A DNA stretch of 64,000 nt from Acidobacteriota bacterium (GTDB lineage: Bacteria > Acidobacteriota > Vicinamibacteria > Vicinamibacterales > 2-12-FULL-66-21): NCBI GenBank assembly GCA_046735335.1, contig JBKPTE010000046.1:32080-96079 (forward strand). Reading direction: 5' to 3'. Below the pieces are notes generated by a model. That model was not told where the DNA came from and ran no database searches. It was given only the letters and a program-made list of their open reading frames with translations. The translations under genes were made by a program, and so were the position numbers. Shown here one piece after another: positions 8,906 through 51,456 of this stretch. Positions within the stretch are counted from its first letter, which is position 1. Every line of letters starts with the position of its first letter.

Positions 8906-8946
8906 GGTTGGAGGTTGGTTGTTGGAGGTTGGTTGTTGGATGTTGG
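8906..8946. repeat. tandem 14-nt repeat GGAGGTTGGTTGTT x2.6
   Basis: Identical copies at 8910..8923 and 8924..8937, then GGATGTTGG. Lies in the divergent mfd / PEP-CTERM spacer. No inverted partner seen nearby. Confidence 0.85.
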
Positions 8947-20504: not shown

Positions 20505-20682
20505 GGTTCACAAGGTTCACGGGGTTCACAGGGTTCAGGGCTGGGTTCTCAGAGTTCCTGGTTCTCAGGTTCTTTGGTTCGCAGGTTCTCGGTTCGCAGC
20601 CCACGAACCCTGAAGAACCGATGAACCGCTGCGAACCCATGAACCCAGCCCTGAACCGCGTGAACGCCGTGAACCCCGAACC
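20505..20682. repeat. tandem-unit inverted repeat filling the parB-selD spacer (GGTTC x10 then GAACC x8)
   Basis: GGTTC at 20505, 20514, 20523, 20532, 20544, 20560, 20568, 20576, 20584, 20591. Centre GGTTCG-cagccca-CGAACC at 20591..20609. GAACC at 20605, 20615, 20623, 20633, 20641, 20653, 20671, 20678. A 17-nt exact complement pair: 20532..20548 with 20641..20657. Confidence 0.9.
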
Positions 20683-22339: not shown

Positions 22340-23025
22340 TTGGTTATTCGACCAAATATGTTTGGCTGCTCTGATGTTCCACGTGGAACACTGCCGACGA
22401 CCTTGGCGAGCACCATCAGGCTACTTTGGTTGGCCGGGACAAGAGGATACCTCCCTACCTGACGTAAGGTCGAGGGGTAATCAGTGCGTTCCAATCTCTG
22501 AGATGCACCGAGGAAGAGCGCAACCCGGGATTGTCCCGTTACCGCGCCAGCGATGAGCTTCCAGCTATCGGGACCAAGCCGAACAGCCCGCGCCGAGATC
22601 ACCGTGGGCGATGGTAGTTGCGTTTCCCTCAGCACGTCGTCAAACCGCGCGGCTTCCACACGCGCCTGCAGGCCGAGTTCTCGGACAGCCTCGCGCAGAA
22701 ACGCCGCCTTCCGTGTTCGCGCCTCGATCATTTGAAGGCTAACGGCGCCAGACGCCAGCGCCAGGGGAATGGCAGGAGAGCCTCCGCCCGATCCCAGGTC
22801 AACCATGCTGGGGCCGCGGGGTAAGTGTGCAGCCGCCGCAACCGGTTCGAGCAGGAGCCGGTCAATCGCGGCGTCCGGCTCATCAAGAGAAGTGAGGTTG
22901 ATGACGGTGTTCCAGCGCGTGAGGAGCGCGTAGTACGCGAGCAAGCGCTCGACCAGCACGTCTGAAAGTGTCAGGTGTGCCGCCCCGGCACGGGCGTTGA
23001 ACCGGCCGCGGACTTCCTCGTCCAT
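22336..23025 (-). CDS. rsmG: 16S rRNA (guanine527-N7)-methyltransferase
   Basis: From ATG 23025 (the track ORF is over-extended to 23460). SAM motif VDLGSGGGSPAIPLAL. Sits in the conserved position between mnmG and parA. Confidence 0.9.
   Translation of the reverse strand: MDEEVRGRFNARAGAAHLTLSDVLVERLLAYYALLTRWNTVINLTSLDEPDAAIDRLLLEPVAAAAHLPRGPSMVDLGSGGGSPAIPLALASGAVSLQMIEARTRKAAFLREAVRELGLQARVEAARFDDVLRETQLPSPTVISARAVRLGPDSWKLIAGAVTGQSRVALFLGASQRLERTDYPSTLRQVGRYPLVPANQSSLMVLAKVVGSVPRGTSEQPNIFGRITK
22375..22390. promoter_or_regulatory. parS: parS centromere-like site TGTTCCACGTGGAACA
   Basis: Perfect 16-bp palindrome that differs from the common parS TGTTTCACGTGAAACA only by a symmetric T>C/A>G pair. 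Lies 36 nt upstream of the parA start, inside the rsmG 3' tail. Confidence 0.8.
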
Positions 23026-23030
23026 CTGGT

Positions 23031-24833
23031 CTATCGGTTCAGCCGGGCGGCAATCAAGGCGACGGCCGCCGGCGTGACGCCGGGTATTCGGCTGGCCTGG
23101 CCAAGCGTTTCCGGCCGAACGGCCGCGAGCCGCTCGACCATCTCCCTGGACAGGCCCGGAACTCCCCGATACGTGAACGTCGCCGGAATGCCGCGCGACT
23201 CCTGCTTCCGAAGCCGGTCGACGACGGTTAGCTGCCGGCGGAGATAGCCGGCGTAGCGAAACTCGGTTTCGAGCGTGGCCAGATCGATGTGGTGGCGGAT
23301 CTCGAGCGGTAGCGACCTGGCAATCCGGTCCACGTCCATACCCGGCCGCGCCATCGCTCGCGCCGCGCCGATGCGAATCCCGTCGACGACGACTGATGAC
23401 CGGCGGATCGTCTCGATGTTCCGCTCGAAACGCGTGCGGCGATCGACGAACGCCTCCCAACGGGGGTCGTCCACGAGACCCGCGCGGCGGCCCTGCGGTG
23501 TCAACCGCAAGTCCGCGTTGTCGGTCCGGAGCAGAAGGCGATGCTCGGCCCGCGACGTGAACATGCGGTACGGCTCGAGGCAGCCTCTCGTCGTGAGGTC
23601 ATCGACCATGACGCCGATGTAGGCTTCATCTCGGCCGAGGACGAGCGGATCCCGTCGGCGAACCGCCAGCGCCGCGTTGATGCCCGCCATGAGACCCTGA
23701 GCGGCCGCCTCCTCGTAGCCCGACGTGCCGTTGATCTGGCCAGCCAGAAACAAGCGACCTACCCGGTGGGTTTCGAGCGTCCGGCGCAGTTCCGTCGGCT
23801 GAATGAAATCGTATTCGACGGCGTACCCGGGCCGAAGCATCTCCGCGTCTTCCAGGCCGTTCATCGCGCGAACGACGTCCATCTGCACGCCGGCCGGCAG
23901 GCTCATCGAAAGACCGTTGACGTAGATTTCGGCCGCGTCGAGTCCCTCGGGCTCCAGGAAGATCTGGTGCCGCTCCCGGTGCGGGAACCGCATGATCTTG
24001 TCCTCGAGCGACGGGCAGTACCTCGGCCCGATGCCGGAGATCTGGCCGTTGTACAGCGGCGACTGACCGATGTGCGCCCGGACGAGGTCGTGGACACGCT
24101 CGGTCGTGTGGAGCAGGTGACAGGAGATCTGCGGACGATCGATCGCTTCTGTCAGAAAGGAGAAGGGAACCGGCGGGTCGTCCCCTCGCTCCTCCTGGAA
24201 CCGCGAAAAGTCGATGCTGCGGCGATGGAGCCGCGGAGGCGTCCCGGTCTTCAGCCGGCCCCACTCGAAACGGAACGACTTCAGCGATTCGGAGAGATCC
24301 CGTGAGGGTGGTTCGCCGGCGCGCCCCGCCGGCCGCTGCTCCGGACCGATGTGAACGAGGCCGTTGAGGAACGTGCCGGTCGTGACGATCAGCGCGTCGC
24401 AACCGTACGTGTCGCCGTCCTCCAGCGCGAGTCCGCGGACGCGGCCCTGTTGCACGAGGACCCGCCCCGCCTTACCGATGATCCATGAGAGATTGGGAAG
24501 CTCCTCGAGTGTCGCGCGGACCCAGCGGCCGTACTCGCGCTTGTCGGCCTGCGCACGCGGGGACCAGACGGCAGGACCGCGGCTCCGGTTCAGCAGCTTG
24601 AACTGGATGCCCGTGGCGTCGATGGCGAGCCCCATAATCCCGCCGAGCGCGTCGATTTCCCGAACCAGATGCCCCTTCGCCGTGCCGCCGATGGCGGGGT
24701 TGCACGGCATCTGCGCGACGGTGTCGCGGGACAGCGTGCAGACGGCCACGTCACATCCCATGCGCGCGGCGGCCCATGCGGCTTCGACCCCCGCGTGCCC
24801 GGCACCGATGACGATGATCTCGTGGCGCCGCAT
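23031..24833 (-). CDS. mnmG: tRNA uridine 5-carboxymethylaminomethyl modification enzyme MnmG (GidA)
   Basis: FAD motif [13 protein letters not shown]. 600 aa collinear with GidA, with the C-terminal ...[15 protein letters not shown] motif. Confidence 0.97.
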
Positions 24834-24851
24834 TGATGACTTACGTATGTC

Positions 24852-26195
24852 CTATTTGCCGATGCAGAACCGCTCGAAGATCGTGCGCAGCACCTCGTCC
24901 GGCGCGCGCGCGCCGGCGACGTCGTCGAAGCACGCGCGCGCCTCGTGCAGGTCCGCGAGCACCAGCTCCTCGGGCCGGCCTTCAGCCGCCGCAATCGCCG
25001 CACGCGCGATCGCCTCCTTCGCGCGAAGGAGCAGCGAGGCGTGCCGGACGTTCGCGATCGCGGGACGATCTCGTCCGGGCGACGGCGCAATCGTCTGTGT
25101 CAGCGCGGCGCGCAGCGCGTCGATGCCTTCGTCCGTCAACGACGAAACGGACAGCGCGCCGGCGTCCTCGCTCCGCCATGCGGCCGGCAGGTCCGACTTG
25201 CTCGCAACGATCACGCGCGCGCGATTGCGCGTCTCGCTCAGGAGCGATCTATCGATGTCGGAGAGCGGCTCGGAGCGATCCAGAACGACGAGCACCACAT
25301 CCGACGCAGCCGCCGCCTGACGTGCGCGCGTCATGCCTTCTTCTTCGATCGCATCGTCCGATGACTCGCGGAGGCCGGCGGTGTCGACGAGCGTCATTGG
25401 AACTCCGCCGATGTCGACGCGCTCCGTGACGAGGTCGCGCGTCGTTCCCGGCACGTCCGTCACGATGGCCCGCGCGGCGCCAATCAGCCGGTTGAACAGG
25501 CTCGACTTTCCAGCGTTCGGCCGCCCCGCGATCGCAACGGTGAGGCCCTCGCGAATGAGCCGGCCGCGAGCCGCGTCCGCCAGCAGCACGTCGAGATCGC
25601 CGGCAAGACTCACCAGCTCCGCTGATGTGCCGTTCGGGTCGCTGAAGTGATAGCCCTCTTCGGGAAAATCGAGTGACGCTTCGAGCGGCGCGATCGCGTC
25701 GAGCAACCGTGCGTCCAGCGCGCGCAGACGCCCGGTCAGCGTCCCTTCGAGTTGATCGAATGCAAGGCGCGCCTGCGCCGGTGTCACGGCATCGATGAGA
25801 TCGGCCACCGCTTCGGCCTGCACCAGATCGATTCGGCCGTTCAAATAGGCGCGCAGCGTGAACTCGCCAGGATTCGCCAGCCGCGCACCACCGCTCAGTG
25901 CCGCTCGAACGATCTGCTCGAGGATCGTCGGGCTGCCGTGCGCCGAGATTTCGACGAGGTCGTCGCCGGTATACGACCGCGGGCCCGGGAAGAACGTCAC
26001 GATGACCTCGTCGAGCGGACAGCCGTCGTGGTCGTGCACGTGCGCGAACGTCGCGAGGCGCGGCTCGACGGAGGCTCGACCCGTCAGCGCGCACGCGATA
26101 CTCGCCGCCACCGGCCCGCTCAGGCGGACGATGCCGATGGCCCCCCGGCCTGGGGGAGTCGCGATGGCCACGATTGTGTCGGCTGGCGAAAACAC
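24852..26195 (-). CDS. mnmE: tRNA modification GTPase MnmE (TrmE)
   Basis: GTG start. G1 motif GRPNAGKSSLFNRL, DTAGLR, and the C-terminal FCIGK tetrapeptide. Confidence 0.95.
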   Translation of the reverse strand: MFSPADTIVAIATPPGRGAIGIVRLSGPVAASIACALTGRASVEPRLATFAHVHDHDGCPLDEVIVTFFPGPRSYTGDDLVEISAHGSPTILEQIVRAALSGGARLANPGEFTLRAYLNGRIDLVQAEAVADLIDAVTPAQARLAFDQLEGTLTGRLRALDARLLDAIAPLEASLDFPEEGYHFSDPNGTSAELVSLAGDLDVLLADAARGRLIREGLTVAIAGRPNAGKSSLFNRLIGAARAIVTDVPGTTRDLVTERVDIGGVPMTLVDTAGLRESSDDAIEEEGMTRARQAAAASDVVLVVLDRSEPLSDIDRSLLSETRNRARVIVASKSDLPAAWRSEDAGALSVSSLTDEGIDALRAALTQTIAPSPGRDRPAIANVRHASLLLRAKEAIARAAIAAAEGRPEELVLADLHEARACFDDVAGARAPDEVLRTIFERFCIGK

Positions 26196-26354
26196 GGTTC
26201 TCGGGTTCTCTCGGGTTCTCAGGTTCTCAGGTTCTCGGGTTCTCAGGTTCTCGGGTTCTCAGGTTTCTCGGGTTCTCGGGTTCTCAGGTTCGAGAGGATC
26301 CCCGAACCCCCGAACGTGAGAACCTGAACCTGAGAACCTCAGAACCTTGGAACC
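26196..26354. repeat. tandem-unit inverted repeat filling the jag-mnmE spacer (GGTTCTCR x11-12 then GAGAACC-type x6)
   Basis: GGTTC at 26196, 26204, 26214, 26222, 26230, 26238, 26246, 26254, 26271, 26279, 26287 (GGTTTC at 26262), mostly on an 8-nt period. Centre GGTTCG-agaggatccc-CGAACC at 26287..26308. GAACC at 26304, 26320, 26326, 26334, 26342, 26350. Confidence 0.95.
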
Positions 26355-26366
26355 ACACAATTCAGG

Positions 26367-26816
26367 TTATCGCCGGCTGGAGATGATGACCGTCTTCAAG
26401 TACGCGTCGCCGATGCTCTCGGACGTCATCTGCGGATCTTCCGCGACGGTGAGGTGGACGAGCCGGCGGCAGTACGGATTTAGAGGCCCCATTTCCTGCG
26501 GCGAGCCGGACGTTCGCGCCTTCTCCATCATGAAGCGCGCCATCTGCCGCAGCTCGGCATCCTTGGCCTTGCGGTAATCCATGCAGTCGACGACGAAGCT
26601 GCGGTCGTCCTTCAACTCGCGGCGGAATCCCGTGTTGACGATTTGCTGCAGCGCATCGAGCGCCTCCGCCTTCCGGCGCAGCAGAATCTCGCCCCCCTCG
26701 CCGGATAGATCGATGCGAATCGCGTCTAGCGTGTCCTCCACGCGCACGTCGAGCGGTAGTTGCATCGCGGACAGGACGTCTTTCATGAAGGCGGCGACCT
26801 TGTGCTGCACGTCCAT
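26367..26816 (-). CDS. jag: RNA-binding protein Jag/KhpB (KH + R3H domains)
   Basis: Conserved position after yidC. R3H-type C-terminus LNPYCRRLVHLTVAEDPQMTSESIGD. Start is ATG 26816 (sharing its A with the yidC TGA) or GTG 26819. Confidence 0.85.
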   Translation of the reverse strand: MDVQHKVAAFMKDVLSAMQLPLDVRVEDTLDAIRIDLSGEGGEILLRRKAEALDALQQIVNTGFRRELKDDRSFVVDCMDYRKAKDAELRQMARFMMEKARTSGSPQEMGPLNPYCRRLVHLTVAEDPQMTSESIGDAYLKTVIISSRR

Positions 26817-28540
26817 CACTCGCGCTCCTTCGCTTGATCCGTCCGGCCGCTCCCGGCCTTCTTAATCCGTCGCTCCGCAGGCGGGCGCACGGTCCGCTGC
26901 TGCATCGGTCCGATCAGCCTGTTCGTGATCATCTGCTGCCCGATACCCCAGAGGTTGCTCACCGTCCAGTACAGCAGGAGACCGCTCGACCACCAGAGCG
27001 ACATCCCGGCGAGGACGACCGGCATGACCAGCATCATCTTCTGCTGCATCGGGTCGGCGGTCGTGGGCGTCATCCGCTGCTGGAAGAACATCGTCGCGCC
27101 CATGAGCACGGGAAGCACGTAGTACGGATCGGGCGCGACCAGATCGTGAATCCAGAGGATGAACGGCGCGCCGCGCAGCTCGATGGCGACGGCGAGCAGC
27201 GAGTAGAACGCGAACAGCACGGGGAACGTCAGCAGCATTGGGACGCAGCCGCTTGCGGGGTTGACGCCGCGCTCCCGATAGAGGTTCATCAGCTCGACGT
27301 TCATCTTCGAACGCGCGGGATCGCTCATCTTGAGCTTCGCGTAGCGATCCTGAATGGCTTTCACCTCGGGCTGAATCTCCTGCATCTTGCGCATGGAAAC
27401 CACGCTCTTGTGCCGGAGCGGGAACATCGCGAGATTGATCAGCACCGTGAGGATGATCACGGACCATCCGTAGTTGCCGACGAACCCGTTGATCCACTTG
27501 AGCGCGCGCAGCAGGGGGACGGCGAGCCACGCAAACATGCCGAAGTGGATCGCGCGGACGAGGTTGCGATCCACCGAGGCAAGGACGTCGAAATCCTTCG
27601 GCCCGAGGAAGAACGTCGCGTCCGTGGGCGGCGACGGGAACACCATCCACCAGCGGACGAAGTGGGCGCCCTCCGGATTCGACGGCATCTGGACGTTGAG
27701 CGGCTGGTACTCGACGCGAACGGGCGTCTTCGGCGCGACGAGCGCGTCCAGGAAGTAGTGGTCGTCCACGCCGACGAATCCGAACGTGCCTTCCTGGACG
27801 GCCTGCGCCGGAATCTTGTCCTGCGAGACGCGCGTGACGCTGCCGTCCTTGTAGAAGATCGGCTGGGAGGGGGGATTGTAGCTGCGCGAGTGCGGCACGA
27901 GGCCGCCGCCCAGCGACGGACCGCCGTGCACCGTGAAGCTCACGGGCTGGCCCGCGCGCGTCACGGACGCGGAGAACACGAGGACGTACGGCTGCGCGGC
28001 GGAGAGGACGAATGTCTTGTGCGCTTCGAGCCCGCCGGCGCCGCGGAAGTCCAATCGCAGCGTCTGCTGGCCTTGTTCGACGTGAAGGGCGTCGGCGCTT
28101 GCCGTGAAGCTGCCGTTCTCCAGCTCGTTCGAAAGCGCGGCATCCTGCACGCTCAACGTGAACGGCAGCGGCACGTCCGCGCCCACCGTCTGCGGGACGA
28201 GCTCCAGGGTGGCCCCTGCCGTATCGCGATACGTCTTCAGGCGCCAGCTCTTGAGCGCGCCGCCTCTCGTGGTGAATGTCGCGCGCACGTACGCGTTGTC
28301 CACGGTGATATCACGCCCCTCGATCGACGGTGCGCTGGCGGGCACGGGCGTCGCCGGCCGCTGCGTGGACGGCGCAGGCGGCGGCGATGAAGCCGGTGCG
28401 GCCGGATTCCCTGGCTGCGCGGCGGCGCCCGACGCCGGCGTTCTGGCCGCCGGCTGCTGCGGCTTGGACGGCAGAAGGAACTGGAAGCCTGCGATGACCA
28501 GGAACGAGAGGACGACGAACAGCAGAACGTTGCGCTGCAT
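26816..28540 (-). CDS. yidC: membrane protein insertase YidC
   Basis: From ATG 28540: N-terminal TM helix, large periplasmic domain, then a conserved core (YGWSVIILTVLINLAMFPLRHKS...MQEIQPEVKAIQDRY...GCVPMLLTFPVLFAFY). Confidence 0.95.
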   Translation of the reverse strand: MQRNVLLFVVLSFLVIAGFQFLLPSKPQQPAARTPASGAAAQPGNPAAPASSPPPAPSTQRPATPVPASAPSIEGRDITVDNAYVRATFTTRGGALKSWRLKTYRDTAGATLELVPQTVGADVPLPFTLSVQDAALSNELENGSFTASADALHVEQGQQTLRLDFRGAGGLEAHKTFVLSAAQPYVLVFSASVTRAGQPVSFTVHGGPSLGGGLVPHSRSYNPPSQPIFYKDGSVTRVSQDKIPAQAVQEGTFGFVGVDDHYFLDALVAPKTPVRVEYQPLNVQMPSNPEGAHFVRWWMVFPSPPTDATFFLGPKDFDVLASVDRNLVRAIHFGMFAWLAVPLLRALKWINGFVGNYGWSVIILTVLINLAMFPLRHKSVVSMRKMQEIQPEVKAIQDRYAKLKMSDPARSKMNVELMNLYRERGVNPASGCVPMLLTFPVLFAFYSLLAVAIELRGAPFILWIHDLVAPDPYYVLPVLMGATMFFQQRMTPTTADPMQQKMMLVMPVVLAGMSLWWSSGLLLYWTVSNLWGIGQQMITNRLIGPMQQRTVRPPAERRIKKAGSGRTDQAKERE

Positions 28541-28547
28541 GGACGAA

Positions 28548-28799
28548 TCAATTCGACGAAGCCGGTTCCTTCGGGGCGCGCGCCGGAACCGGATCGAGCC
28601 CGGACCCGCCGAGAGGGTGACACCGCGCGAGCCTGCGCAGCGCGAGCAGTCCGCCCCGCAGCGCGCCGTGCATCCGGACGGCATCCGCGGCGTAGACGGA
28701 GCAGGAGGGCACGAAGCGGCACGCGCCCCCAGTCATCGACGCCAAGGTCAACTGATACAATCGGATAGCGCCAAGCGCCAGTCGCGCGCTGATCGTCAT
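28548..28799 (-). CDS. yidD: membrane protein insertion efficiency factor YidD
   Basis: From ATG 28799: ...[53 protein letters not shown] overlap with the rnpA stop. Confidence 0.85.
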
Positions 28800-32390: not shown

Positions 32391-35035
<2,645 letters not shown>

Positions 35036-35036
<1 letters not shown>

Positions 35037-35116
35037 TGAATTGGTGAACTCGTGAATCGGTGAATCGAAATTCACCAACTCAATTCACCAACTCACCAAT
35101 TCACCAACCCACCAAT
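35036..35116. repeat. tandem-unit inverted repeat filling the gyrB-gyrA spacer (GTGAAYNN x4 then YYCACCAA x5-6)
   Basis: GTGAA at 35036, 35044, 35052, 35060 (8-nt period). Centre GGTGAAT-CGAA-ATTCACC at 35059..35076. YYCACCAA at 35071, 35084, 35092, 35100, 35108. Ends 5 nt before the gyrA ATG. Confidence 0.9.
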
Positions 35117-35121
35117 TACAG

Positions 35122-37602: not shown

Positions 37603-39862
37603 GCTTCGCGAACTTCGCGAGGAGCTTCTTCTGACCGACTGAATTGAACCGGACGGTCACCTTCAGATCATCCGTGTGCTCGTCCACCGCGAGGACCGTC
37701 CCGACGCCGAACTGCGCGTGCCTGACGCGCATGCCGGGACGCAACGGCGCGGCCGACTGATCTTCGTTTTCGTACGAATAGGCAGGCGCGTCTTCGCGGA
37801 ATCTGGCGCCGCGTCCCTTCCGCCCGTACGGGTTCGTCCGGAACTCGTAATGGGCGTGCGTGAACGTTCCCTGATACGCCGGCCTCTCGGCGTCGATGCG
37901 CTCGACGAGCTCGGGAGGAATCTCGACGAGGAACCGTGACGGCTGTGTGCCCTGGTACTCGCCGAAGATCCGCCGCCGCGCGGCGCCGGTGAGGACGAGA
38001 CGCGATTCCGCTCGCGTCATCCCCACGTAGAAGAGCCGGCGCTCCTCTTCCATCTCCGCCTCGTCCTCCGACGAGCGCGAGTGCGGGAACAGCCCGTCCT
38101 CCATCCCCGCGATGATGACGACCGGGAACTCCAGCCCCTTTGCCGCGTGCATCGTCATCAGCCAGACCTTCGCCTCGCGGGTGCCGGCCTCCTCGTCTGC
38201 CTCCGAGAGCAGCGAGAGGCGATCGACGAACCCGCCGATGGACGCGTCGGCTTCACGCGTCTCGTATTCGCGCGCGGCCGAGACGAGCTCCATGAGGTTC
38301 TCGATGCGTTCGTTGGATTCCTCGGAGTTGTCGTCGCGGAGATCGTTCAAGTACCCCGTCTGGTCCAGCATCTTGCCGATCGCGATCGAGACGGGATCCT
38401 GCCGAGCGACTTGCGCGAGCCCGACGAGAAGATCGCGGAAGACGCGGAGGGACGCGACGGCGCGGTTTCCGAGCTTCCCTTCGTCCACGGCGTACACGAG
38501 GCGGGCCCAGAGCGAGCGCGCGGAGCTGACCTCGGCGAGGCCTGCGGCGAGGAGCGGCGGTGCATCGGCCGCGATCGCGTCGGGATCGATGGCCTGCAGC
38601 GCGTCCATCACGCCCTTGCCGATCCCGCGCGCCGGCACGTTGATCACCCGCCGAAGGCTCACATCGTCGTGCGGGTTGATGATCAACTTGAGGTACGCGA
38701 GCGCGTCCTTGATCTCCTTGCGTTCGTAGAACCGCACGCCGCCGATGATCTTGTAGGCGACGCCTTCTCGCATGAGCGAGTCTTCAATCGCGCGCGACTG
38801 CGCGTTCGTGCGATAGAGCACCGCGAGGGTGGCGTCGAGGTCCTCGGCGCGCGCCTGTTTCGTGGTGCGCGTGATGAAGTCCGCCTCTTCGAGCTCGTCG
38901 CCGCCTCGGAAGTAGAGGATCTTCCGCCCGCCTTTGCGCTCCGTCCACAGGCGCTTGTCCTTGCGATTGCGGTTCTGCTGGATGACCGCGGTGGCTGCGT
39001 CGAGGATCACTTGCGTGGAGCGATAGTTCTGTTCGAGCCGGACGATCTTCGCCTCGGGAAAGTCGTGCTCGAAATCGAGGATGTTTCTCAGGTCGGCGCC
39101 GCGCCACTTGTAGATCGACTGATCGGGATCGCCCACGACCGCAAGGTTGCGGTGGAGCTCTGACAACCGCCGGATGAGGAGGTACTGCGGGCGGTTCGTG
39201 TCCTGATACTCGTCGACCATCACGTAGCGGAACTTGCGCGCGTAGCGCTCGCGCGTCGCCGCGGACGTTTCGAACAGCTCGACGGTCTTCAGGAGCAGAT
39301 CGTCGAAGTCGAGGGCGTTCGAGTCCGCGAGCGCGCGGATGTAGCGTTCGTAGATCTTCGCGATCTGCTCGTCGCGCAGGTTCCACTGTCCGCGCAGCGA
39401 GTCGGGCCCTTCCATCCGGTTCTTCGCCTGGCTGATGCGCGCGAGCGCCATGCGCGGCGGCACGAGCTTGTCGTCGATCCCGAGCTCGCGCTCAGCCTGC
39501 TTCACGACGGCGACCTGGTCGGACGAATCGTAGATGACGAAGTCGCGGGAGAGGCCGATGTGCGGCGCCTCGCGCCTCAGCAGCCGCGCGCAGAGTGAAT
39601 GGAACGTCGACAGCCAGATGCCGTTGCACTCCTTGCCGAGGAGCGACTCCACGCGGTCGCGCATCTCCCCCGCCGCCTTGTTGGTGAAGGTGACGGCCAG
39701 CACCTCGTCCGCCTTCGCATGGCCATCGCCGACGATGTAGGCGATGCGGTAGGTGATGACGCGCGTCTTTCCCGAGCCCGCGCCCGCGAGGATGAGAAGG
39801 GGGCCGTCGATCTGCAGCACGGCCTCACGCTGCTCGGGGTTCAGGTTCGCGAGGAAAGACAT
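37589..39862 (-). CDS. uvrD: ATP-dependent DNA helicase UvrD/PcrA family
   Basis: From ATG 39862: MSFLANLNPEQREAVLQIDGPLLILAGAGSGKTRV, YVMVDEYQDTNRPQY, VVGDPDQSIYKWRGA. The track ORF is over-extended to 40246. The 3' end overlaps the gyrA 3' end by 14 nt (convergent). Confidence 0.9.
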   Translation of the reverse strand: MSFLANLNPEQREAVLQIDGPLLILAGAGSGKTRVITYRIAYIVGDGHAKADEVLAVTFTNKAAGEMRDRVESLLGKECNGIWLSTFHSLCARLLRREAPHIGLSRDFVIYDSSDQVAVVKQAERELGIDDKLVPPRMALARISQAKNRMEGPDSLRGQWNLRDEQIAKIYERYIRALADSNALDFDDLLLKTVELFETSAATRERYARKFRYVMVDEYQDTNRPQYLLIRRLSELHRNLAVVGDPDQSIYKWRGADLRNILDFEHDFPEAKIVRLEQNYRSTQVILDAATAVIQQNRNRKDKRLWTERKGGRKILYFRGGDELEEADFITRTTKQARAEDLDATLAVLYRTNAQSRAIEDSLMREGVAYKIIGGVRFYERKEIKDALAYLKLIINPHDDVSLRRVINVPARGIGKGVMDALQAIDPDAIAADAPPLLAAGLAEVSSARSLWARLVYAVDEGKLGNRAVASLRVFRDLLVGLAQVARQDPVSIAIGKMLDQTGYLNDLRDDNSEESNERIENLMELVSAAREYETREADASIGGFVDRLSLLSEADEEAGTREAKVWLMTMHAAKGLEFPVVIIAGMEDGLFPHSRSSEDEAEMEEERRLFYVGMTRAESRLVLTGAARRRIFGEYQGTQPSRFLVEIPPELVERIDAERPAYQGTFTHAHYEFRTNPYGRKGRGARFREDAPAYSYENEDQSAAPLRPGMRVRHAQFGVGTVLAVDEHTDDLKVTVRFNSVGQKKLLAKFAKLTPA

Positions 39863-39878: not shown

Positions 39879-39968
39879 TAGCGGGTGCGACGTGCCTCGT
39901 GCGGGTGCGTCGAGCGGCGTGCGGCGTGCGGGTGCGTGGCGCGGGTGCATTGGCGCGGTGTGTGAGAA
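39879..39968. repeat. GC-rich array of GCGGGTGCG-type units upstream of uvrD
   Basis: GCGGGTGCG at 39881, 39901, 39928; GCGGGTGCa at 39941; GCGCGGTGTGTG at 39954. Confidence 0.75.
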
Positions 39969-45901: not shown

Positions 45902-45903
45902 GG

Positions 45904-45997
45904 CACGTCTTCAGACGTGTCTCCGCACGTCGCGGCGATCGTCACTGAGGCGCATCTTTAAGGCGCATCTAAAGATGCGCCCTACGAAGAATGCGCC
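45904..45997. terminator. hairpin pair between convergent leuB and SPFH gene, second one with 2 direct + 2 inverted unit copies
   Basis: CACGTC-TTCA-GACGTG at 45904..45919. AGGCGCATCT at 45948 and 45961; AGATGCGCC at 45973 and AGAATGCGCC at 45988. Central hairpin GGCGCATC-TAAA-GATGCGCC. Confidence 0.5.
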
Positions 45998-46002
45998 CCA
46001 GC

Positions 46003-50010: not shown

Positions 50011-50087
50011 GGCGAATGACGAACGACGAACGACGAATTTCGAGCTTCATCATTCGTCTTTCGCCGTTCGTCTTCCGTCGTTGAGTC
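50011..50087. repeat. tandem-unit inverted repeat at the glmU-glmS junction (7-nt register, GACGAAY x4 then TTCGTCN-type x6)
   Basis: Units start at 50011, 50018, 50025, 50032 (GGCGAAT GACGAAC GACGAAC GACGAAT), at 50039 (TTCGAGC), then at 50046, 50053, 50060, 50067, 50074, 50081 (TTCATCA TTCGTCT TTCGCCG TTCGTCT TCCGTCG TTGAGTC). Centre GACGAAT/ATTCGTC at 50032..50058. The right arm lies inside the last codons of glmU. Confidence 0.9.
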
Positions 50088-51456
50088 GCTTCTTCGCGTC
50101 CGCCCAGCCTTCTTTGTTGATCTGCTTCCCGCGCGCGATCCCGAGCGCGCCGGCCGGGACGTCGTCGGTGATCGACGATCCGGCGGCCACGTACGCGCCG
50201 CGCCCGACGCGCACCGGCGCAATGAGCTGCGTGTCGCTGCCGATGAACGCCTCGTCCTCGATGACGGTCGGGCTCTTCACGCGCCCGTCGTAGTTGCACG
50301 TAATCGTTCCGGCGCCGATGTTGACCTTCTCGCCGATCGTGGAATCCCCGAGGTAGGAAAGATGGCTGGCCTTCGAACCCTTTCCAAGCGTCGTCTTCTT
50401 CAACTCGACGAAGTTGCCGATCTTCGCGTGCTCTCCGACGTCGGAGTTCGGCCGCAGGCGCGCAAACGGCCCGACTTCCGCGCCGGCCCGGATGCGTGAT
50501 TGCTCGATGACGCAGAAGTTCTGAACGACCGCGCCGTCTTCGACGATGGCGTCCACGAGGCGTACGCAGGCCTGGATCTCGCAGCCGGAACCGATCGTCG
50601 TCTTTCCTTCGAGGTACACGTTTGGATGGAGCACGGTATCGGGGCCGACGGAGACGTCGGGGCCGACGAACGTCGACGCGGGATCGACGATCGTGACGCC
50701 CGCGGCCATCAGCTCCTCTACGCGTGCGGTTTTCAGGATGGCGTTCACGTCCGCGAGCTCCCTTCGACTGTTCACGCCAATGATTTCTCGTGCGTCCGCG
50801 GCCGTCACGGTCTCCACGCCGCGGCCGCGCGAACGGTAAATCCGCACGAGGTCGGGCAGGTAGTACTCCCCCTGCGCGTTGCCCGACCCAATCGACGCAA
50901 GCGCATCGAACAGCGGCGCGAGATCGAACGCGTAGACGCCGCTGTTGATCTCGTCGATGCGGCGCTCCTCCGGCGTTGCATCCCGATCTTCGACGATTGC
51001 CGCAATCGCCTCATCCCGTCGGACAATCCGGCCGTAGCCGGAGGGATCGGGCACGCGCGCCGTCAGCACGGTCGCGGCGGCCTGCGTCTCGACGTGTCGA
51101 TCGAGCAGCCGCCGCACCGTCGCGAGGCGCAGCAACGGCACGTCCCCCGACAACAGCAACACCGTACCCTTGCCCTCGGGGAGGTACGGACGCGCCTGCA
51201 GGAGCGCGTGACCGGTGCCGAGCTGAGGCTCCTGCAATGCAAAGCGCAGGCCCGGCCGAGCTCGCTGCGACGATTCGACGAGGGCCGCACCGTGTCCGAC
51301 AATCACCGTCGTCGTGGCGGGTTGCAGCGCCGCGGCGAGACGGAGCACGTGTTCGATGAGGGGCAGGCCGGCCGCCCGATGGAGGACTTTGGGCTGCGCG
51401 GATTTCATGCGCGTCCCCTTTCCCGCCGCGAGGACGACGACATGAAGCGGCGGCAT
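50050..51456 (-). CDS. glmU: bifunctional UDP-N-acetylglucosamine pyrophosphorylase / glucosamine-1-phosphate N-acetyltransferase
   Basis: [13 protein letters not shown], a left-handed beta-helix hexapeptide region, and a C-terminal tail ...[14 protein letters not shown] encoded by the repeat arm. Confidence 0.95.

Follow-up and report, generated by a model that had tools for sequence, protein, structure and literature searches.

The window analysed here, a 64,000-nt stretch of a contig from an Acidobacteriota bacterium, carries a co-directional string of minus-strand genes recognized by their Pfam domains: yidC (26816-28684), jag (26367-26819, R3H domain, overlapping yidC), mnmE (24852-26195, with the TrmE_N, MnmE_helical and MMR_HSR1 domains) and mnmG (23031-24833). 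Our subject is the repeat element that occupies the spacer between jag, the upstream cistron (stop codon at 26367-26369), and mnmE, the downstream cistron, whose GTG start (26193-26195) agrees with the MFS... N-terminus of its orthologues. Upstream of mnmE there is no canonical Shine-Dalgarno sequence, and the relatives with short spacers lack one too. The element extends over 26196-26354, that is, over 159 of the 171 nt that separate the jag stop from the mnmE GTG; one of its edges adjoins the GTG directly and the other lies 12 nt from the jag stop codon.

The element is made of two arrays that face each other. The long arm (26196-26291) contains about 12 tandem copies of GGTTCTCR on the plus strand, for which Tandem Repeats Finder (TRF) returned a period of 8, 11.6 copies, 85% matches and a score of 130. 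It is nearly homogeneous and follows a 16-nt super-period (GGTTCTCA GGTTCTCG), with irregular units of 10 nt at 26204 and of 9 nt at 26262. Its GGTTC cores start at 26196, 26204, 26214, 26222, 26230, 26238, 26246, 26254, 26271, 26279 and 26287, and a variant core, GGTTTC, is found at 26262. The centre, or loop (26292-26302, GAGAGGATCCC), holds the 6-nt palindrome GGATCC and belongs to the motif GGTTCG-AGAGGATCCC-CGAACC that spans 26287-26308. The short arm (26303-26354) is composed of 6-7 inverted units, in order CCGAACC, CCCGAACG, TGAGAACC, TGAACC, TGAGAACC, TCAGAACC and TTGGAACC, with GAACC (GGTTC on the minus strand) at 26304, 26320, 26326, 26334, 26342 and 26350. This arm is more degenerate than the long one, increasingly so toward its outer end, and TRF detected in it a weaker period-8 array (26304-26347). 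Alignment of one arm with the inverse of the other gave a complementarity of 86% over 29 nt and of 95% over 21 nt. Altogether, 17 GGTTC/GAACC cores are packed into 159 nt, compared with about 136 in the remaining ~64 kb when the two arrays are set aside.

In the mRNA sense the short GGUUC arm is the 5′ arm, and the long arm, which then reads YGAGAACC, is the 3′ arm that abuts the mnmE GTG. The difference between a homogeneous long arm and a degenerate short one suggests that one arm may have expanded recently. On both sides the array is bordered by ACAC, a 4-nt direct repeat: the first copy (26192-26195) abuts it, reads GTGT in the mRNA sense and includes the mnmE start codon, while the second lies at 26355-26358. 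This arrangement resembles a duplication, and we treat it as weak evidence. The original prediction, made from the letters of the DNA, had described a run of octamers followed by inverted units, unequal arms, repeats filling almost the whole spacer, the GGUUC arm coming first in the mRNA, and the individual cores and centre listed above. All of this was recovered as described.

The same prediction had proposed folding against dinucleotide shuffles, and the region 26180-26380 indeed folds far better than its shuffled versions, with a z score of −6.8 in the mRNA sense and of −10.3 as plus-strand RNA; folded as single-stranded DNA, it scores −6.95. The sense strand is the less stable of the two (−94.8 kcal/mol versus −114.3 kcal/mol for the antisense). 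In the predicted ensemble of the mRNA, the 5′ GGUUC arm is essentially all paired and its partner is provided by the middle units of the long arm, leaving a surplus of long-arm units of which part is located in the apical region. Many slipped pairing registers coexist, and the minimum free energy structure has a frequency of only 0.004. Next to the GUG, the final ~28 nt are open to some 50-80%, and the unpaired probability averages 0.47 for positions −30 to −1. The claim that the surplus units must remain unpaired in front of the start codon is thus too strong: these ~28 nt alone are partly open, and some of the surplus is apical. There is no U-tract within the spacer, as had been stated, but a U-run, GUGUUUUCG, comes directly after the hairpin and forms the first codons of mnmE.

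Three sister elements are present elsewhere in the window. At 20505-20682 (z = −8.1), GGTTCACR/GGTTCTCA units are followed by inverted GAACC-type units; this element begins 6 nt past the stop of parB, in front of an AIRS-family gene, and the two genes are on the minus strand. At 35033-35117 (z = −6.9), GTGAATYG/GTGAACTC units are followed by inverted ATTCAC/CACCAA, the element overlapping the TAG of gyrB and stopping 4 nt short of the ATG of gyrA (plus strand). At 50012-50090 (z = −3.0), CGAACGA heptamers and their inverse occupy the minus-strand gap between glmU and glmS. The glmU open reading frame (ORF) terminates within the 5′ arm of this last hairpin (50050-50090) and its last ~10 codons are made of the CGAACGA-type array; judging from the sequence, the C-terminus of GlmU seems to have been replaced or lengthened by the repeat. 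A one-armed array, (GGTTGGW)n, or CCAACMW in the sense of mfd, is found at 8906-8946 in a divergent gap, about 45 nt upstream of the mfd start. When 26 intergenic gaps of 40 nt or more in the window were roughly tabulated, repeat hairpins occupied 4 of about 12 co-directional gaps and none of the convergent or divergent ones listed (about 6 each). Within these 64 kb, at least five different units are in use. GGTTC-type units build two of the four hairpins and other units the remaining two. The jag-mnmE element has no second copy in the window, where each locus has arm sequences of its own.

Two other structures of the window can be set beside these. The convergent gap at 45902-46002 holds a strong, non-repetitive hairpin (z of about −5.8), in contrast to the repeat hairpins, which is probably an ordinary bidirectional terminator. 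At 39881-39958 there is a G-rich, degenerate tandem array (GCGGGTGCG..., with periods of 7, 13, 20 and 27) beside a possible minus-strand start codon (39860-39862).

Orthologous spacers were compared next to those of the window. We gathered from genome and metagenome collections 152 related loci that contain both genes (here numbered with the prefix L), locating in each the jag stop and the mnmE start. By the relatives of its MnmE, the window belongs to the order Vicinamibacterales of the Acidobacteriota, with a best identity of 81%; exact-sequence look-ups of its own Jag and MnmE yielded no contig that encodes them. The spacers of the 152 loci amount to 138 distinct sequences (median 57.5 nt), of which the 73 measuring 55-260 nt were analysed. 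Arrays were detected by TRF and reverse-complement alignment, periodicity was scored as lag identity over 24 nt, and length-matched segments from inside mnmE (n=73) served as control. Our results show strong short-period arrays in 26 of the 73 spacers (period 7 in 21 of them, period 8 in 3) and in none of the controls. A z score of −3 or lower was obtained for 32 spacers, again with no control reaching it, and 16 spacers combine an array with such a score. Among the 26 array-bearing spacers, 16 have an inverted partner array of the same unit.

The sequence of the unit turns over between lineages. Some units are shared by several loci, as is the case of GGTGGCT/GGTAGCT (L011, L038, L110 and L142), GGCTCAR (L008, L092 and L154), GGTTTTG (L015, L025 and L113), GATTGCT (L031, L132 and L133) and ACGRAGNN, which forms long, near-perfect hairpins in L045, L107 and L138. 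Others come from one locus each: AGTCGAT (L040), CAGTCGT (L013), GTGATCTN (L063), GGTGATTT (L083) and GGGGATT (L102). In L001, the closest relative, the spacer (81 nt) contains no repeats. Elements of this kind are also found in the mnmE-mnmG spacer of some genomes, less frequently. One-armed arrays located before start codons are mostly G-poor (L036, L082, L090, L137, L040 and the array at 8906 of the window). Comparison with related genomes, which had also been suggested, thus reveals arrays in 26 of the 73 spacers analysed, with units that differ by lineage and with none in the closest relative. The array of the jag-mnmE spacer is real, and is one case of a class that is widespread in the spacers of this genome and of the order.

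Several of the loci surveyed have peculiarities of their own. In L040 (MAG RIFCSPLOWO2_02_FULL_65_29, a metagenome-assembled genome; 600-5593), every spacer of the rpmH-rnpA-yidD-yidC-jag-mnmE string, as well as the region after mnmE, contains 7-8-nt arrays, namely an AGTCAAC hairpin, (CACGAAGA)n in up to ~20 copies, TAGAAGT, CGAACG and an AGTCGAT hairpin. The jag-mnmE spacer of L004 (3566-4000) reaches 435 nt and consists of a complex repeat with a period of ~50 nt (CGCGGAACA and CTGTGAAATAG modules) and no simple hairpin. In L102, two long hairpins of unrelated units stand on either side of mnmE, GGGGATT (205 nt) upstream and a near-perfect CAGTCGT hairpin (180 nt) downstream; in Nostoc, GGGGATT is the unit whose G-quadruplex formation was studied (PMC4692102). 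Finally, L086 and L087 are one mnmE locus found twice, in inverted orientation, on the 46.5-kb contig Ga0137375_10000387, and this inverted duplicate may be an assembly palindrome.

Comparison of closely related loci indicates how the arrays change. Between L132 and L133, whose flanks are identical over 900 nt, one arm differs by a 21-nt indel (3 × 7), and the pairs L144/L153 and L015/L113 differ by indels of 7 and 14 nt between flanks that are 97.5% identical. Since whole units are gained or lost between identical or near-identical flanks, slipped-strand mispairing is the process indicated. The arms vary in length independently, hence asymmetric elements such as that of the jag-mnmE spacer, with 12 units against 6. 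In the trio L045/L107/L138 the arms are ~93% identical, compared with 82-85% for the coding flanks, the centres are non-homologous and three pairs are altered on both sides in L138. As far as sequence comparison goes, this conservation of the arms and these double-sided changes speak for retained pairing. Furthermore, the arms have a polarity: G outnumbers C in the 5′ arm of all four window elements and of 26 among 31 orthologous hairpins (binomial p=0.0002), which leaves a C/A-rich, G-poor arm next to the downstream start codon. This polarity cannot identify the transcribed strand, because a palindrome is identical from both strands.

The element does not correspond to several better-known kinds of sequence. 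A CRISPR array was rejected, in line with the original prediction, given contiguous units of 8 nt versus repeats of ~23-50 nt with unique spacers. No credible ORF runs across the array either, as had been predicted; the only one that spans it is a 70-aa antisense frame (26174-26386, plus strand) in which the octamers are read in rotating frames. A search of the whole window against Rfam 15 at the gathering score gave no match other than one tRNA, and relaxing the threshold to E≤1 added only sub-threshold, chance-level matches to generic miRNA hairpins. The partition site parS (16-bp palindrome TGTTNCACGTGAAACA) was discarded as well, since the window matches it once only, at 22375-22390, outside the arrays. 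This match is a canonical parS palindrome, TGTTCCACGTGGAACA, situated between the parA start and an upstream rsmG-like ORF. Its half-site, GTTCCAC, is similar to the GGTTCCAC(A/G) units of L072 and L033 and, more loosely, to the GGTTCAC/GGTTCTC units of the window.

We found no description of repeat hairpins from Vicinamibacterales or Acidobacteriota in the open-access literature. The kind of element has nonetheless been described already, in Xanthomonas and Geobacter, and the member found here comes from a new phylum, with an octamer unit and markedly asymmetric arms. The jag-mnmE element shows the features of paired inverted hepta- and octanucleotide arrays: it contains at least three tandem copies of 7-8(9) nt, a second array of the same unit (6 GAACC cores) lies nearby on the opposite strand, and, as in all four window elements, it is intergenic, between ORFs of the same direction, and has the convergent orientation in which the G-rich array comes first. 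In Xanthomonas campestris and X. axonopodis there are 70-75 convergent, opposite-strand GGGAATC array pairs per genome, mostly between same-direction ORFs and with lengths that vary between both species (Rehm et al. 2015, PMC4692102). The arrays described here resemble them in being intergenic, paired on opposite strands with the G-rich one first, capable of forming stem-loops or cruciforms, and variable in length and sequence in close relatives. On the other hand, a single G-tract unit, investigated for its formation of G-quadruplexes, dominates across the Xanthomonas genome (PMC4692102), whereas the units found here measure 8 nt (7 in most relatives), are several and unrelated within a genome, mostly lack G-tracts, and form arrays that fill stop-to-start spacers.

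In Geobacter metallireducens, three classes have been reported that pair arrays from opposite strands, each array with 3-5 tandem copies of GTTGCTYN, TCTCCGTS[Y] or MTYCTGA; one pair is located between proB and proA, and the classes were proposed to be sites for global regulators, possibly IHF/HU (Aklujkar et al. 2009, PMC2700814). The presence of several unit classes per genome, the variable spacing and the intergenic, also intra-operon, location are common to both cases, and some cores are similar to units found here (GATTGCT and CTCCGT). They differ in that each Geobacter class is a multicopy family of 8-24 pairs with a conserved unit (PMC2700814), while the arrays of our survey are longer (up to ~12 units) and asymmetric.

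More distant likenesses exist with three other types of repeat. Repetitive extragenic palindromic (REP) sequences and bacterial interspersed mosaic elements (BIMEs) are intergenic hairpins of operons that act as barriers to mRNA decay and allow differential expression within operons. Hairpin-forming, intergenic and intra-operonic too, the arrays considered here might by analogy work in a comparable way. An identity with REP/BIME was rejected: REPs are units of 20-40 nt with a conserved GTAG/CGTC head, and no such palindrome is present in arms made of 7-8-nt tandem units (8 nt in this element). According to PMC3733652, REPs are spread in many copies by RAYT (REP-associated tyrosine) transposases. 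Long simple-sequence repeats (LSSRs) are tandem units of 5-11 nt, mostly intergenic, that occur in large genomes of free-living bacteria, with heptamers as the commonest and slippage as the proposed origin (Mrazek et al. 2007, as summarized in PMC4679880 and PMC4692102). The jag-mnmE array, a head-to-tail 8-nt unit repeated beyond what chance would give, is one by that definition, and the dominance of period 7 among the relatives agrees with it; the concept, as it is relayed in those two papers, does not include an inverted partner, and Acidobacteriota are not among the LSSR-rich genomes they name. Lastly, TAACTGA repeats of marine Beggiatoaceae and cyanobacteria are located at or near start codons, where they replace the Shine-Dalgarno sequence, also within operons, and a translational role has been proposed for them (MacGregor 2015, PMC4679880). 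The G-poor arm placed at the mnmE GTG and the one-armed arrays of L036, L082, L090 and L137 recall this situation, unlike which our arrays have varied and often inverted units: TAACTGA is a single conserved unit, inverted in 1 of 170 cases and not hairpin-forming (PMC4679880).

The explanation that we prefer, and to which we give about an even chance of being right, is that the element is a palindromic simple-sequence repeat made at the DNA level, transcribed as a sliding intercistronic hairpin and probably acting as generic intercistronic structure. Its DNA-level origin is well supported, while its function is something we infer. With its 8-nt units in tandem set against inverted copies of themselves, the element is such a palindromic repeat; replication slippage adds or removes whole units, and some form of intrastrand templating or duplication probably makes the inverted arm and keeps it homogeneous. 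It is one of a class that fills intergenic spacers throughout Vicinamibacterales, with a unit sequence that turns over between lineages. Because it lies inside the co-directional yidC-jag-mnmE-mnmG string, the element is presumably transcribed as part of a polycistronic mRNA. There its arms would pair into a long, imperfect and register-sliding stem-loop that may pack away most of the ~160-nt insert, so that only about a dozen unpaired bases would separate the stop of jag from the start of mnmE. Such a stem would probably be generic, serving as a decay barrier, as a possible target of double-strand RNases and as a brake on the initiation of mnmE, which lacks a Shine-Dalgarno sequence. The surplus C/A-rich, G-poor units beside the GTG would be partly open, and a change in unit number would alter how far this leader is open; no sequence-specific signal is implied. 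The jag-mnmE element is in any case an instance of a class, and not a singular regulatory device for mnmE.

A number of observations weigh against this explanation. Co-transcription, processing and any effect on mnmE are things that we infer. Orthologues with hairpin-free spacers of 0-30 nt are common, and the element is hence dispensable. In the 32 orthologous hairpin spacers, the stability of sense and antisense strands is tied (16:16, Wilcoxon p=0.92), and the excess of G·U over A·C expected from selection on the sense RNA is absent; three of the four window elements, the jag-mnmE one included, are more stable in antisense. As both strands fold equally, there is no sign of a structure selected in the mRNA of mnmE specifically. 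This strand-symmetric complementarity fits an origin at the DNA level, by slippage and intrastrand templating, or simply youth, and the pairing could be young, or a matter of DNA only, without any function in RNA. In favour of retained pairing, the main stem of these 32 spacers covers a median of 90% of the spacer and ends a median of 2.5 nt from the stop and 6.5 nt from the start, but these figures are influenced by the bias toward the ends that comes with folding isolated spacers. Moreover, the loci surveyed share a phylogeny and are not independent.

The arrays could instead be a neutral by-product, as microsatellite palindromes that expand by themselves through slippage and template switching and are tolerated wherever there is non-coding room. 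We regard this as possible, if doubtful. The unit-number indels between identical flanks, the turnover of units between lineages, the lack of an array in the closest relative and in roughly half of the orthologues, and the strand symmetry of the complementarity are all as expected from such a process, as is the way arrays run up to or into coding sequence at the stop of gyrB, the C-terminus of glmU and the GTG of mnmE. The predominance of heptamers has been ascribed earlier to polymerase slippage (Mrazek 2007, in the accounts of PMC4679880 and PMC4692102). Yet an inverted partner in 16 of 26 array spacers exceeds what random expansion alone would produce, and neither the strong polarity of the arms nor the restriction of the window hairpins to co-directional gaps is accounted for. 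The arms of L045/L107/L138, better conserved than their coding flanks and altered on both sides, also argue against neutrality, and a stem of −80 to −150 kcal/mol beside a start codon is unlikely to be without consequence for expression.

At the other extreme, the arrays could be lineage-wide, continually regenerated intercistronic palindromes in which DNA templating keeps the arms complementary and unit number works as a tunable knob of operon expression, perhaps read by a factor that binds single strands with a 7-8-nt periodicity; the same principle would then operate in Xanthomonas and Geobacter. This most ambitious reading seems to us rather unlikely.

Unlikely, too, is that the arrays act at the DNA level, as binding sites for nucleoid-associated proteins or global regulators or as cruciforms or other non-B DNA. 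Strand symmetry and the consistent convergent polarity of the arms are compatible with it, and GGTTC, ACGAAG and GGTGGCT-type cores recur across genomes, in addition to the GGTTCCAC units (L072 and L033) that are similar to the parS half-site of this genome. However, with at least five units in the 64-kb window and dozens at the same locus across relatives, such diversity argues against one sequence-specific protein. A spacing of 7-8 bp, moreover, places successive sites on different faces of B-DNA. The arrays are also located between stop and start codons within operons, and not in promoter regions, even if binding sites have both a precedent and a proposal in Geobacter metallireducens (PMC2700814).

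A terminator or attenuator that parts jag from mnmE, formed by the hairpin and the GUGUUUUCG stretch or by open C-rich units acting as a Rho entry site, is very unlikely. The stem is very stable and has U-rich sequence right behind it, where mnmE begins, and the surplus arm is C/A-rich and G-poor. But this U-run is coding sequence, reading mostly TTC in orthologues, and an intrinsic terminator was rejected on that ground, on its location inside a co-directional string and on the absence of any consensus site in 26196-26366; a scan for promoters and terminators gave nothing at the element. There is neither room nor signal for an mnmE promoter downstream of the hairpin. Furthermore, elements of the class are found between obligately co-expressed pairs such as gyrB-gyrA, while the convergent gaps of the window contain no simple-sequence hairpin and one of them has an ordinary hairpin instead.

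It is more improbable still that the element is a small non-autonomous insertion of the type of miniature inverted-repeat transposable elements, with long terminal inverted repeats built of short units. The ACAC repeat flanks the array exactly, and excising the element together with one ACAC copy would leave an 8-nt jag-mnmE spacer, within the range of the relatives; in L045/L107/L138 the arms are conserved like terminal inverted repeats around unrelated centres. None of the other three window elements, though, has a comparable flanking duplication, there is no second copy in the window, arms differ between loci, and indels consist of whole units within arms, as slippage predicts.

That misassembly created the unit number or the entire array is scarcely credible: although the count (~12 versus 6) rests on assembly and the metagenome contig L081, which is 99.46% identical to the window over 4.4 kb, stops inside the array, indicating that short-read assemblers break there, this contig carries the same 62 array bases nearest mnmE without a single difference, an inverted arm with a unique centre is unlike the products of repeat collapse or expansion, and comparable arrays are found in many assemblies made independently, megabase-scale contigs among them (L008, L036, L072 and L004), so that they are not a quirk of a single assembly method.

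Paired inverted arrays of 7-8 nt have been recorded in Xanthomonas and Geobacter without explanation so far, and their presence across a mostly uncultured order of soil Acidobacteriota makes the phenomenon phylogenetically broad. One orthologous spacer in which units turn over and unit number is polymorphic within populations provides a natural series for asking whether selection acts on the hairpin, on the unit or on neither. The interest of the case lies in this comparative series, with its turnover, polymorphism, strand-symmetric pairing and arm polarity, more than in a single spacer. The arrays are also relevant to the quality of metagenome-assembled genomes, to gene calling and to the prediction of expression, because they break short-read assemblies, can overwrite gene ends (as at glmU) and abut the starts of essential genes.

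The alignment of L081 with the window revealed two further differences outside the array. A 1-nt indel separates both sequences in the mnmE-mnmG spacer, and L081 is without 20 nt of mnmG (window 23074-23093; near position 3166 of L081), which would frameshift its mnmG. The mnmG of the window is intact and encodes an MnmG with its C-terminal domain.

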